From: a phage
Length of the DNA stretch: 64,000 bases
Sequence record: PZ296772.1
Strand: one strand, 5' to 3'
Shown here: positions 22,682-26,701 of the stretch, one piece after another
Numbering within the stretch: position 1 is the stretch's first letter
Layout of the letters: every line of letters begins with the position of its first letter
The notes under the pieces: generated by a model
What the model was told of the DNA's origin: nothing
What the model saw: only the letters and a program-made list of their open reading frames with translations
Database searches by the model: none
Made by a program: the position numbers and the translations under genes

Positions 22682-23278
22682 ATGCGAAACCAAAATAATG
22701 ATATTGACTCAATGTTCGAAGAGTTCCGAAATAAGGTAAATCCACCTACGTCTTTAGTTGATTCATTACGATATGTTGCAACTGGACGTAAATGGTACTG
22801 GTCGTCTTCTTATGAGACAACTGAATATGCAAATAACCGAAAATCTTTATTAGCCCCAGGTATTATGATTCATGATATCGGAGCTATTGCTAAACTAGTT
22901 GCAGACCATGATATTAGATTCACTGATTTCATTGCTCCTACATGGTCTGTTTGTTGTTTAAACACTGAACGGGACTATATCAGCGAACGCTCTGAAGATT
23001 ATTATGGTTTTAGAGATAAGCTCTTAAGGTCTAACATGTTTTATATCGATACTGAAGTTCTAGTCGATAATAAAAAATATTACTTTACGTTAATCGTCGA
23101 TTCTGAAACTATGTATGAAGGCAAGCCTTTGCTTAAAAGAGTTGATGCTTTAAGTGCTATTGATGCGCTTTATGAAACCATGGTTGTTAGTCCTAATTTC
23201 ACTAACAATTTAATCCTTGAGCAATTTATTATGGAATGTAGAGAATATGTCAAAGCCAACCCTATACATGCCAAGTAA
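22682..23278 (+). CDS. Hypothetical protein ending in FIMECR tail motif
   Basis: 198-aa product from MRNQNNDID (AAGGAG RBS); C-terminus ...EQFIMECREYVKANPIHAK. Confidence 0.55.
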   Translation: MRNQNNDIDSMFEEFRNKVNPPTSLVDSLRYVATGRKWYWSSSYETTEYANNRKSLLAPGIMIHDIGAIAKLVADHDIRFTDFIAPTWSVCCLNTERDYISERSEDYYGFRDKLLRSNMFYIDTEVLVDNKKYYFTLIVDSETMYEGKPLLKRVDALSAIDALYETMVVSPNFTNNLILEQFIMECREYVKANPIHAK

Positions 23279-23642
23279 GCCCTGGGCGTATGAATACAAG
23301 CGTAAATTAATCCCAAATGAAGTACTATTTGGCCCTATTTTAGCTTTAGCATTTTTAATCTTTATGATTATAGGAGCTGTTTTAGATTCTAGTGAAGTTA
23401 TATCGTCTGATGCAGCATTTTCATTAATGTTCGTCGCACCACTTATTGTACCATTTTTATTAATGCCTATTAACTGGGTAGGATATTGGCACCAAGGCCG
23501 TCATCACAGAGCTCGAGTTCGTGAGTGGAAAGTTCAGTGCGCAAAAGCCCAAGCTCAGTATGATGAAGCTGTTAAAAAGTATGAATATGAAGAAGCTATG
23601 GAATTCGTTAAGGAAATAAGATGCAAAAGCCTCAACTCTTAA
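23247..23642 (+). CDS. Membrane protein (2 TM) with basic/helical C-terminal tail
   Basis: Start chosen at MSKPTLYMPSK (alternatives 23217 or 23268); hydrophobic helices; tail ...EFVKEIRCKSLNS. Confidence 0.45.
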   Translation: MSKPTLYMPSKPWAYEYKRKLIPNEVLFGPILALAFLIFMIIGAVLDSSEVISSDAAFSLMFVAPLIVPFLLMPINWVGYWHQGRHHRARVREWKVQCAKAQAQYDEAVKKYEYEEAMEFVKEIRCKSLNS

Positions 23643-23980
23643 CCGTATGGCCTTCTCTTGGTGAGAATATTTTAATTTTTATCACGAGCGCCGGCATGGG
23701 ATTTGCCTTTGGATTAGTTGGATTTCTTATTGACGGCGTTGTGTTAGGATTTATAGGGAACACTGGTGGGTTCACAGACCAATGGCAGGACTTACGGTAT
23801 ACCCAAGCCTTTGCATCCATCGCATCCTTTTGTACTGTAGTCTATTTTTACTACGATTTTATAAACCATAACAAGAAAAATAAAAAGGTTTACGCTTCTC
23901 AAATGATTAGTTATAATGAACTCCTAGCTAGACGTGAAAATGAAACAATCGAAAACTTTATTAAGGAATGTAGAAAATGA
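23621..23980 (+). CDS. Membrane protein with C-terminal ENFIKECRK tail
   Basis: 119-aa ORF; 2-3 hydrophobic helices then Lys-rich linker and ENFIKECRK terminus. Confidence 0.55.
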   Translation: MQKPQLLTVWPSLGENILIFITSAGMGFAFGLVGFLIDGVVLGFIGNTGGFTDQWQDLRYTQAFASIASFCTVVYFYYDFINHNKKNKKVYASQMISYNELLARRENETIENFIKECRK

Positions 23981-24282
23981 GTAAGATTATTGAAATTAAA
24001 GTACCAGAGTTTAATGATGCCAAATCCGCTTCAGATGCAATTTATAAACTTCTGAATCAAGCTGAACGTATCGAAGAAGAAGCAACAAAGATCGCAGACC
24101 AATATTCTGTATCATTTTCTGTAGGTGATTATGGTAGCGGTCGTACTTATTATCCTAAGGGTGAAATCGTATCCCAGTGGATGAAAAATGAAATTGAAAA
24201 TAATGGCGGCGATGTTAAGCGTGAAGGTAATGGTTACGTTATTACTGAAGGTGCTTGGGTTTCGTCTTCTGCGTTGTGCTAA
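23977..24282 (+). CDS. Tandem paralog 1 of GWVSSSxxC family
   Basis: 101-aa ORF ending GAWVSSSALC; followed by two paralogs with near-identical spacers (TGCTAAGGAA..ATG). Confidence 0.55.
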   Translation: MSKIIEIKVPEFNDAKSASDAIYKLLNQAERIEEEATKIADQYSVSFSVGDYGSGRTYYPKGEIVSQWMKNEIENNGGDVKREGNGYVITEGAWVSSSALC

Positions 24283-24291
24283 GGAATCATT

Positions 24292-24564
24292 ATGTCTAAA
24301 GAACAAACCGAACTGGCTGAAGCCGTAGCAAAAATATATGCAGCTATTGAGGCTGCCAAAGAAATTGCTGATAAACAAAACACAACATTCGACTTGTATC
24401 CAGCTTATGGTATGGGTGGAACCTATCATTCACCAGGACATCTTAAAGCCGATCTTGAACGTTGTACAAAAAACGGTTATGCTGAATGGGCTGATGTTTA
24501 TCAATACGACTACAACCTGAGCCTTGAAGATGGTGGTTGGGTTGCATCTTCACACACTTGCTAA
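24292..24564 (+). CDS. Tandem paralog 2 of GWVSSSxxC family
   Basis: 90-aa ORF ending GGWVASSHTC. Confidence 0.55.
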   Translation: MSKEQTELAEAVAKIYAAIEAAKEIADKQNTTFDLYPAYGMGGTYHSPGHLKADLERCTKNGYAEWADVYQYDYNLSLEDGGWVASSHTC

Positions 24565-24573
24565 GGAAACCAT

Positions 24574-24771
24574 ATGTCTCGTGAATTAGATTGTGCTGTA
24601 CGTACCGCGGTAGCTGCTCTAGAAAACCTGTTCCAAATTGCAACAGAAGAACGCGAAGAAGTTACATTATGGATTGAAGATAACGCAGGTCTGAATCTCC
24701 AGGACGCGATCTCATTATCTAATAATAGCATTACTGTTCAAGGCTGGGTATCGTCTAGTTATTCTTGCTAA
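24574..24771 (+). CDS. Tandem paralog 3 of GWVSSSxxC family
   Basis: 65-aa ORF ending QGWVSSSYSC. Confidence 0.55.
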   Translation: MSRELDCAVRTAVAALENLFQIATEEREEVTLWIEDNAGLNLQDAISLSNNSITVQGWVSSSYSC

Positions 24772-24775
24772 AACA

Positions 24776-24814
24776 GTTTACAATAAGATAGGACTATGTT
24801 ATAGTAGTCCTATC
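24776..24814 (+). promoter_or_regulatory. Early promoter cassette (GTTTAC, TATAGT, GATAGGACTA/TAGTCCTATC inverted repeat)
   Basis: -35 24776-24781, -10 24800-24805, perfect 10-bp inverted repeat 24787-24796 / 24805-24814. Confidence 0.65.
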
Positions 24815-24833
24815 AAATTAAATGGAGTCCGCA

Positions 24834-25073
24834 ATGATTTATTACGAAAGTATCGGAACCAAAGTGGTTGGTAAAACCATTACTCGTGAAAAGTTTGCAA
24901 AGATATTCGATATGCGTTATAAAAAATCTGAACACAAAGGCATCCGATTCGAAGATGCGCACTGTGCAATTTGCCCTTATAATGAAGACGTAAATGGTAC
25001 AATCGTTCCATTGGTAGAGGCTTCACATGATGACCTCTGGGATGAATATAATATCGCATGTCGTGAAATTTAA
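24834..25073 (+). CDS. Hypothetical protein
   Basis: 79-aa product from MIYYESIGTK (GGAG RBS); ends ...YNIACREI. Confidence 0.5.
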   Translation: MIYYESIGTKVVGKTITREKFAKIFDMRYKKSEHKGIRFEDAHCAICPYNEDVNGTIVPLVEASHDDLWDEYNIACREI

Positions 25074-25101: not shown

Positions 25102-26058
25102 ATGATGTTAGTTATTGGTTCTCGTGCACTTCACTATCATGGTCTTATTGATTCTAGCGCTATCAAAAATAGTGATTGGGACTTTATTGCAGACCAAGGT
25201 TCTTGGAATGCATTCAAAAATCAAATGATGGGTGTATATGTTCATCAAGATAACCCTGATGTCCAAGTTTTCAAATGCTTCCATAATGGACGCGAAACTC
25301 ATTTTGAAGCATATATTGTTCCGGCAATCACTAATGTCCGTGAATTAGTCGGTGAACTCACTCCTGAAGATTTCACGTCTTCTTATGACCTTTTAAAATA
25401 CGCCAAGAAAAATTTGACTAAAGACCGTTTGACCGGGTTTTACTGGGCAACTCCTGAGATATGTCTTGCAATTAAAATGTCTCATCGTTTCAAGAAAAAT
25501 AATCCATTCTTTTTAAAGACTATGAACCATATTCAGTATCTTCGCGGTAAAGGTGTTACACTGAACGATGAACTTACTGAAATTATGCTGAAACGCCAGA
25601 AAGAAACTTTGAACTATGCTCACCCGGTTCTTGACACTTCTAAAAGTGCGTTCTTTAAAGATGACATCTATACATATGACCATGATACTATTCATGAAGC
25701 CATTGCACTAACTGACCAGCCTGCTTATAAGTTTTATATGAAAGAAGGCTCAGAAGTTATGACATCACGCGAGAAGTTCGAATCATTACCAGAAATGGTT
25801 AAATTAGCCGGTGTATATGAAGAAGCTTGTGTATTAGCTCTTGAACGTTCACAGATTCCTAACGACTTTAAAATCCATCCGAGTGATAGTTTTATGATGG
25901 CCCTTGAAAAGGTCTGTACATCAATCACATCAGGATGGTTCCGTGAGTTCGCTTGGGAAAATTATAGCAAAGTAGTAAGTATGTACCAAAGCTTAGGACA
26001 TGACGATTACGTCAAGCGTTTCAAACAAAACTTTCATATGGTAAAACCTTTCAAATAA
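25102..26058 (+). CDS. Hypothetical protein, possible nucleotidyltransferase-like N-terminus (weak)
   Basis: 318-aa ORF; N-terminal VIGSRA...(17 aa)...SDWDFI loosely resembles hG[GS]...DxD of Pol-beta-type NTases but spacing is long. Confidence 0.5.
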   Translation: MMLVIGSRALHYHGLIDSSAIKNSDWDFIADQGSWNAFKNQMMGVYVHQDNPDVQVFKCFHNGRETHFEAYIVPAITNVRELVGELTPEDFTSSYDLLKYAKKNLTKDRLTGFYWATPEICLAIKMSHRFKKNNPFFLKTMNHIQYLRGKGVTLNDELTEIMLKRQKETLNYAHPVLDTSKSAFFKDDIYTYDHDTIHEAIALTDQPAYKFYMKEGSEVMTSREKFESLPEMVKLAGVYEEACVLALERSQIPNDFKIHPSDSFMMALEKVCTSITSGWFREFAWENYSKVVSMYQSLGHDDYVKRFKQNFHMVKPFK

Positions 26059-26395: not shown

Positions 26396-26701
26396 ATGAA
26401 ATTAACAGAAACCAACCGAATCGGTCTTTTTACAATATTTGCATCGCTTTTTTACGCAGCTCTTTCTGTTGCAGTATTACAAAAGGCTTACGATATGGAT
26501 GGTGTTCCTGGTTGTATATTTTTATCACCGTTTTTATTATTCGTCGGAGCTTTGATATTATATGCCACGTCCGGTTTAGACCATAATGTCTGGGTCAATT
26601 ATAAACGTAAATTGTCCGAAGAAGAACACGCAGAAGCTCGTAAAAAAGCTATTGAATCTACCAATCTAGAAAATTTCATTAAAGAATGTCGAGGAAAATA
26701 A
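26396..26701 (+). CDS. Membrane protein (2 TM) with C-terminal ENFIKECRGK tail
   Basis: 101-aa ORF; two hydrophobic helices, charged helical linker, ENFIKECRGK terminus. Confidence 0.6.
   Translation: MKLTETNRIGLFTIFASLFYAALSVAVLQKAYDMDGVPGCIFLSPFLLFVGALILYATSGLDHNVWVNYKRKLSEEEHAEARKKAIESTNLENFIKECRGK

Follow-up and report, generated by a model that had tools for sequence, protein, structure and literature searches.

Three consecutive open reading frames (ORFs) of a T4-type phage encode small proteins that end in one and the same cysteine-terminal tail, and comparison of viral loci indicates that these proteins are very probably coupled functionally to a predicted nucleotidyltransferase encoded just downstream. 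The ORFs (ORF1 to ORF3) occupy positions 23977 to 24771 of the window, by which we mean the whole analysed stretch of 64,000 nucleotides (nt) from sequence record PZ296772.1. The window comes from a Mosigvirus (RB69-like, T4-type), and many deposited genomes match it with 96-99% identity. Our high confidence in the coupling draws on the existence of the tail family, its oriented synteny with the enzyme, the intact state of the enzyme and the age of the paralog types. As to how the coupling works, it is quite possible, though we would not yet call it probable, that the three proteins are cognate partners of the nucleotidyltransferase which dock through their tails; we favour clients or substrates over inhibitors resembling the antitoxin MenA1. 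The genes concerned are the following.

23977..24282, plus strand: ORF1, 101 amino acids (aa), type A tail protein, ending GAWVSSSALC
24292..24564, plus strand: ORF2, 90 aa, type B tail protein, ending GGWVASSHTC
24574..24771, plus strand: ORF3, 65 aa, type C tail protein, ending QGWVSSSYSC
25102..26058, plus strand: enzyme gene, 318-aa protein with DUF7277 and DUF7275, 330 nt downstream of ORF3 (stop at 24771)

The association was followed in 82 viral loci, which were retrieved via two invariant motifs of the enzyme and scanned with a hidden Markov model (HMM) of the tail family and with the tail pattern. In 81 of them, one to six tail proteins are encoded on the enzyme's strand, upstream of the enzyme; departing from this upstream-only placement, three loci carry one additional tail copy just downstream. 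Not a single match to the tail pattern was found among 2366 minus-strand ORFs of these loci. Copy-number variation in related phages, for which the original prediction had proposed to search, is indeed present and ranges from 0 to 6 copies (1 locus with none, 12 with one, 30 with two, 14 with three, 5 with four, 16 with five and 4 with six). The association is kept in 32 of 33 enzyme clusters formed at 70% identity, and the loci belong to T4-like phages, jumbo phages of 350-390 kb and contigs of 40-100 kb. Between the enzyme and the nearest tail gene upstream there are 12-1702 nt, with a median of 352 nt; in many loci outside the T4 group, the final small gene directly adjoins that of the enzyme or overlaps it (gaps of 12-60 nt).

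The same linkage emerges when the search starts from the small proteins. A degenerate DNA pattern encoding YGMGGTYYP recovered 13 loci, 10 of them with downstream DNA present, and in all 10 testable cases the enzyme follows immediately downstream. Downstream of each of three distant homologues, on contigs of 370, 87 and 40 kb, comes a DUF7275 gene at a distance of 0.2-1.4 kb, and further tail proteins are encoded alongside. After all-against-all clustering of the loci, the tail family and the enzyme were the only two gene families common to all; no third conserved gene was found across the 82 loci, a metallophosphatase and a PNK-like protein being present in only 10-14 of them. The single locus without tail proteins nearby, L035 (a T4-like viral contig of 165,540 bp), has an intact enzyme gene and no array within 5 kb; directly upstream of the enzyme gene, where the array would be, it carries seven tRNA genes (L035 3615-4567). 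Transfer RNA genes occur at most 5 kb from the enzyme in 14 of the 82 loci, and RNA-repair genes are found near it in unrelated phages (Rnl1 with PNKP in L003, PNK in L109, Rnl2 in L112). These neighbours give a weak hint that the module may be linked with tRNA or RNA ends.

The original prediction, made from the letters of the window alone, had pointed to three consecutive ORFs with the above lengths and cysteine endings, and this was confirmed on the plus strand, exactly where it had placed them. The window has 297 ORFs of 45 aa or more, and none besides these three ends with the motif; pairwise BLASTP among the three gave E-values of 1e-4, 2e-3 and 5e-4. Because of this rarity, the lack of minus-strand matches and the BLASTP values, the triplet with its common ending must be regarded as real and beyond chance.

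Judged by sequence, the tail proteins form a family found only in phages. Its members are small and acidic (medians: about 90 aa in length, -8 in net charge). A profile search run exhaustively over 1.84 billion representative proteins returned 241 representative clusters at E<=1e-3. The typical member has 75-120 aa and consists of an amphipathic N-terminal helix ending ...AE.IADE, a strand, a loop (D/A)YG(S/M)G(R/G)TYYP, an acidic aromatic variable stretch and the tail. The tail itself reads G-x-W-(V/L/I)-S-S-S-x-x-C-COOH, in its general form W-x(1-2)-S-S-x(0-2)-C with Cys nearly always last, and all three ORFs carry the general pattern with Cys as the final residue. Conservation of the tail is extreme: the final residue is Cys in 194 of 210 family sequences (most others have one residue after the Cys), and W at -7, S at -4 and S at -3 are each retained in more than 98% of the 210. 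For the terminal Cys, the original prediction had proposed that it could form a disulfide, a lipidation site or a metal ligand. Some members contain internal W-x-S-S-G-C repeats. An apparent fusion of two units was noticed in the metagenomic protein P0066 (134 aa), in which a second helix-strand unit, with the ending ...CVWDHSGCAF, comes after a Cys tail (...GWAASSQSC).

ORF1 matches phrog_899 of the PHROG database (E 1.4e-22), as does ORF2 (E 4.8e-19), and ORF3 falls into the separate phrog_4882, both groups without assigned function. Our own family HMM retrieves all three, with E-values of 1.5e-26, 4.6e-23 and 2.4e-5 for ORF1, ORF2 and ORF3, respectively. Pfam, NCBIfam, PADLOC and PDB sequence searches of the three proteins gave nothing meaningful. 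A capsid-targeting or secretion signal was considered and set aside, as the motif is C-terminal and neither a signal peptide nor a lipobox was seen by eye. The literature was searched for the DUF names, the RB69 ORF names, C-terminal cysteine tags and phage MenT-like enzymes, and no paper describing them turned up; as far as can be told, the partner family, its tail and its pairing with the enzyme are new, whereas the fold of the enzyme is of an already known kind.

Comparison of the three proteins with each other revealed unequal degrees of relationship. ORF1 is made up of an N-terminal helix, a GDYGSGRTYYP loop and the tail; its AlphaFold2 (AF2) model has a predicted local distance difference test score (pLDDT) of 92.2, with a helix at residues 15-43 and a small sheet. 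ORF2 has an AYGMGGTYH loop in addition to the helix and the tail, so that the two proteins have helix, YGxGxTY motif and tail in common. ORF3 possesses an N-terminal helix and the tail and lacks the YGxG loop. The Gly/Tyr-rich middle (YGSGRTYY or YGMGGTYH), originally ascribed to all three, is thus confined to ORF1 and ORF2. A repeat search at the DNA level also recovers YG(S/M)G(R/G)TY in these two genes, as well as G-x-W-V-x-S-S. Sharing phrog_899 and two motifs besides the tail, ORF1 and ORF2 are, by their sequences, clear paralogs, as predicted. The prediction fares less well for ORF3: when an alignment of ORF3-type proteins from nine phages was compared by hhalign with the ORF1/2-type profile, similarity was limited to the last 14 columns (probability 85.6%, E 5.6e-6). 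Similarity confined to the tail, which had been named as the outcome that would speak for chance or convergence, is therefore nearly the situation of ORF3 and not that of ORF1 and ORF2. Taken together, the three ORFs look like old paralogs, or at least tail-sharing relatives.

Up to five tail types can be distinguished in related T4-like phages: A like ORF1, B like ORF2 and C like ORF3, together with type D, which contains ...EEYIPASS... and ends GFWYSSSMSC, and type E, which has an internal DWLNSSCYGE and ends W-x-P-S-S-C. Since types C and E resemble the others in the tail only (for type C, as detected by hhalign), the tail seems to behave as a portable element carried by several protein bodies, of at least five types. 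The types stay recognisable across relatives whose enzymes are 64-75% identical; because each type persists over such distances, the duplication must be old and its copies conserved.

The junctions between the three genes are as follows.

24277..24297, plus strand: ORF1/ORF2 junction, TGC TAA GGAATCATT ATG TCT (repeat family D3)
24559..24579, plus strand: ORF2/ORF3 junction, TGC TAA GGAAACCAT ATG TCT (repeat family D3)

Near-identical spacers had been predicted, and the junctions, taken from the Cys codon through stop and spacer to the first two codons of the next gene, do agree at 18 of 21 positions (86%). The spacers proper, GGAATCATT (ORF1/ORF2) and GGAAACCAT (ORF2/ORF3), are identical at 6 of 9 bases; both are exactly 9 nt long, not 9-10, and the consensus proposed for them drops one base. 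In the TAAGGA of each junction, the stop codon is merged with the Shine-Dalgarno sequence. This overlap and the 9-nt spacer suggest translational coupling of ORF1 and ORF2, and part of the junction identity is explained by such an arrangement. At the start of the triplet, the ATG of ORF1 overlaps the stop codon of the preceding gene (ATGA). We considered whether the tail might be a by-product of this stop/Shine-Dalgarno cassette and rejected it, since the tail persists where the cassette is missing, in the final gene of the array and in distant homologues.

Diversifying selection, which the original prediction had regarded as typical of such duplicated phage genes, finds no support. Ratios of nonsynonymous to synonymous substitution rates (dN/dS) were estimated by the Nei-Gojobori method among Mosigvirus orthologs, the paralogs having saturated synonymous sites at about 30% identity. 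The values are 0.06-0.40 for ORF1 (on few substitutions), 0.04-0.05 for ORF2, 0-0.03 for ORF3 and 0.06-0.08 for the enzyme. All orthologs are under purifying, not diversifying, selection, and the paralog types are conserved. The highest value for ORF2, 0.37, belongs to the swapped allele of phage LF82-3 (L116, 1816-2088). This allele shares only 80% nucleotide identity with the window, whereas the flanking ORF1 and ORF3 share 98.4% and 95.5%, and it looks like a mosaic swap of the middle gene alone.

The protein encoded at 25102-26058 matches only DUF7275 and DUF7277 in Pfam at E<=1. Residues G6, S7, D25, D27 and E69, which make up the Pol-beta nucleotidyltransferase signature GS...DxD...E, are invariant in 55 diverse enzymes of the family. 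The same holds for K125, H128, H174, H194, D195, H198, E248, R249 and KVC(T)SITSG(W)FRE, except that T273 and W279 of this stretch are retained in at least 90% of the sequences, not in all. The predicted fold is structurally similar to solved MenT toxins. Tabled values for the structural relatives are 10.0 for MenT1, 8.6 for ANT(2''), 8.5 for TglT/MenT3, 7.7 for MenT4, 7.6 for TM1012, 7.4 for 4ok0 (a putative nucleotidyltransferase of H. pylori) and 7.2 for LnuA. From the model, the protein is confidently predicted to be a Pol-beta nucleotidyltransferase, closest to MenT/AbiEii toxins and to ANT(2'')/LnuA. At the sequence level no link to these relatives was found (no match to Pfam DUF1814, none in PADLOC, and no transferase in a PDB profile search). 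The RlaP family of RNA-repair transferases, mentioned in PMC7824862, was rejected, being a different Pfam family and giving no match. More than 2400 clusters at 90% identity make this a large enzyme family, which has members in 734 deposited phage genomes. In 185,579 bacterial and archaeal species genomes, only six contigs matched, all of them from metagenome-assembled genomes.

How might the two gene families work together? In the client or substrate reading, tail proteins and nucleotidyltransferase would be two halves of one module. Each small protein would offer the same tail to the transferase, and its variable body would give it an individual role. The transferase would use a nucleoside triphosphate and most likely modify the tail, by O-nucleotidylylation of an invariant Ser or by a reaction at the Cys thiol. 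One enzyme could thus serve several client proteins in a module apparently expressed early in infection, its probable biological role being host takeover or counter-defence, possibly tied to tRNA or RNA ends. We favour clients or substrates because the small proteins occur in one to six copies, because unrelated bodies have the tail alone in common and because the motif is repeated internally in some members. We favour them also because transcription signals or genes can part the array from the enzyme, and because L035 has the enzyme without the array. A bolder version of the same idea is conceivable, and we regard it as rather doubtful: a protein-tagging system, in which a portable W-x-SS-x-x-C tag would mark up to six small effectors for one dedicated Pol-beta nucleotidyltransferase. 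Ser O-linked or Cys-linked nucleotidylylation, or Ser activation followed by thioether formation, would then switch on or target the effectors in early infection.

Several observations weigh against clients that dock through a free tail. AF2 places W94-S96 of ORF1 in a beta strand of a well-folded domain, so that in type A the tail may have a partly structural role and not be a free peptide. From SS to C there are 0 to 2 intervening residues, a variation that suits recognition more than one fixed chemistry. The substrates of the enzyme's nearest structural relatives are tRNA 3' ends (MenT) or small molecules (ANT, Lnu), and not proteins. Distant DUF7275 enzymes exist in Vibrio, Streptomyces, Gordonia, Brevibacillus and Roseobacter-type phages without tail proteins. 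Finally, inhibition has a direct precedent in MenA1, a short protein antitoxin whose gene lies upstream of that of MenT1 (PMC10435456). Regarding the distant loci, an adjacent acidic protein of about 100 aa, apparently of another family, takes the place of Cys-tailed neighbours in Vibrio phage ValKK3, Streptomyces phage BillNye and Gordonia phage Cucurbita (the neighbours noted beside distant enzymes lie at L111 2860-3153, L109 4246-4581, L110 4100-4390 and L113 2758-3039). In Brevibacillus phage Sundance, the neighbour of the enzyme ends in repeated EEEEYSSSYY.

Inhibition is the most serious alternative, and we consider it possible, though on balance unlikely. The small proteins would be cognate, antitoxin-like inhibitors or regulators, whose acidic body and tail would fill the positively charged substrate cleft of the enzyme and restrain its tRNA- or nucleotide-directed activity until needed. 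MenA1, a protein of 68 aa with a long helix, blocks the active site of MenT1 (PMC10435456), and the phage proteins are likewise encoded upstream, small, acidic and provided with a long N-terminal helix; the short gaps or overlaps between the last small gene and the enzyme in many non-T4 loci fit this picture as well. However, one inhibitor would suffice, yet two to six diverged paralogs are usual and each type is kept across genera. The conserved part is a short tail, at times internally repeated, on otherwise unrelated bodies, and in T4-like phages the array is set apart from the enzyme by a hairpin, a promoter-like site and other genes. An enzyme without any array, as in L035, is also hard to reconcile with a restraint of this kind.

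It is much less probable that the small proteins are precursors matured in the manner of ribosomally synthesised and post-translationally modified peptides (RiPPs). The tail Ser would be nucleotidylylated and eliminated to dehydroalanine, to which the Cys would add to give a thioether (lanthionine-like) ring, perhaps with the help of the His/Cys-rich DUF7275. The gene arrangement is reminiscent of this, several tandem "precursors" with a conserved C-terminal S...C core standing beside one conserved two-domain enzyme. Both Ser and the Cys of the tail are invariant, some members have internal SSGC repeats, and the C-terminal domain of the enzyme carries invariant H128, H174, H194, D195, H198 and C272. 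On the other hand, the small proteins are confidently folded alpha/beta domains that include the tail strand, not leader-plus-core peptides, and the Ser-to-Cys spacing is variable. C272 is not kept in the wider enzyme family, and Pfam and NCBIfam searches of the neighbours detected no conserved protease, transporter or recognised RiPP enzyme. We know of no Pol-beta transferase that activates Ser in this way.

The least probable alternative, which we consider highly improbable, holds that fast-evolving accessory paralogs under diversifying selection merely lie beside the enzyme in a plastic region, their common C-terminus reflecting constraint on the TGC-TAA-GGA coupling cassette; the block does lie in the hyperplastic region between e and the tRNA genes, and its junctions are alike at the DNA level, Shine-Dalgarno sequence included, but synteny is kept in nearly all enzyme clusters, which come from unrelated types of phage, and also when tested in reverse, dN/dS is 0-0.4, and the tail is kept at the protein level in very distant sequences and also without a downstream gene, ORF3 ending TGCTAAAAC. 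Synteny, dN/dS and conservation at the protein level contradict coincidence or a tail that arose at the nucleotide level. The clustering of the enzymes at 70% identity speaks against the synteny being an artefact of closely related genomes in the sample.

Signals and genes around the triplet are listed below.

23889..23917, plus strand: promoter-like site of sigma-70/T4 early type, TTTACG-17-TATAAT, inside e.3 and 60 nt upstream of ORF1 (consensus match only)
24777..24819, plus strand: promoter-like site of early type, TTTACA-17-TATAGT with TG, overlapping a hairpin with a 10-bp stem (inverted repeat I5), between the triplet and the downstream genes
24834..25073, plus strand: 79-aa protein (83 aa from an upstream ATG at 24822), phrog_3723, not a tail protein

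In phage SA79RD, a middle promoter is annotated near about 23.89-23.92 kb (window coordinates) and a terminator at the position matching 24777..24819. The promoter-like site and hairpin directly after ORF3 resemble the promoter-stem-loop cassettes that divide modules in T4-type genomes. The phrog_3723 protein between the array and the enzyme is, among the loci examined, conserved only in T4-like relatives.

The triplet block is located between e.3 and e.2 and is preceded by homologues of e.6, e.5, e.4 and e.3. In T4, e.3 abuts e.2 with nothing in between, and the triplet therefore belongs to an accessory block. The RB69 counterparts are RB69ORF139c plus RB69ORF138c for ORF1, RB69ORF137c for ORF2, RB69ORF136c for ORF3 and RB69ORF134c for the enzyme. 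The division of ORF1 in the RB69 reference genome (AY303349; L117, 1501-1807) into ORF139c (71 aa) and ORF138c stems from a 1-nt difference in length (796 nt versus 795 nt), which is either an old sequencing error or a true frameshift; ORF1 is intact, with 101 aa, in all other Mosigvirus loci that were examined. The e.4 homologue (window about 23217-23642; L001 5648-6043 in phage JK45) is named "sulfurtransferase" in several deposited genomes, and the window copy has no Pfam support for this name.

A second C-terminal peptide motif, (N)FI(K/M)ECR, was noticed at 23225-23241, 23957-23973 and 26675-26691 of the window (3 matches versus 0.1 expected), near the ends of the e.5 homologue, the e.3 homologue and a 101-aa membrane ORF (26396-26701). 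The copies use different codons, which implies conservation at the protein level. Similar endings (FIRMCRK, FIKYCRGK, FIQMCRG, FITECRGK) occur in neighbouring ORFs of related loci (L025, L029 and L035).

The enzyme family has so far been known only as two domains of unknown function (DUFs). Its carriers include T4-like phages of Escherichia, Klebsiella, Enterobacter, Acinetobacter, Aeromonas and Pseudomonas, a frequent source of therapeutic phages. Once the enzyme is paired with partners whose four-residue tail is invariant, both groups of "hypothetical proteins" become parts of a two-component system that can be tested. Modification of the tail, if it occurs, would represent a new route of viral protein modification, and MenT-like transferases would gain a new class of substrates; inhibition by the small proteins would mean that virulent phages carry a toxin-antitoxin-like pair. 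Either outcome bears on host takeover by large phages or on their answers to tRNA-directed defences.

Among known systems, RiPP clusters (lanthipeptides, AviCys peptides) resemble the phage module in that small genes stand in tandem, encode diverged bodies with a conserved Ser/Cys motif at the C-terminus and are accompanied by a single conserved enzyme. The phage module differs from them in its folded products of about 90 aa and its different class of enzyme, and it contains no LanB, LanC, LanM or LanD, radical SAM (S-adenosylmethionine) enzyme, protease or exporter. In GlnD/PII and MntA/HepT, a small protein partner is modified on a hydroxyl side chain by a Pol-beta transferase, and the His/Asp-rich second domain of the phage enzyme loosely recalls the HD domain of GlnD. 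The acceptor in these pairs is a Tyr in a loop or helix, however, not a C-terminal Ser/Cys tail, and there are no multiple paralogous clients. ANT(2'')-Ia and LnuA differ from the phage enzyme in having small-molecule substrates and no partner proteins, and they show no sequence similarity to it and lack DUF7275.

The closest parallel is offered by MenT/AbiEii (DUF1814), which have the same GS...DxD...E signature followed by a conserved Lys. MenAT1 is also similar in its gene order, with a small helix-containing protein encoded upstream on the same strand (PMC10435456). Sequence or structural similarity of the triplet to MenA1 was looked for and not found. Unlike MenT/AbiEii, the phage enzyme is larger, has its own strongly conserved C-terminal DUF7275 domain and is found in virulent phages; and unlike MenA1, its partners number one to six per locus and are defined by their Cys-terminal tail.

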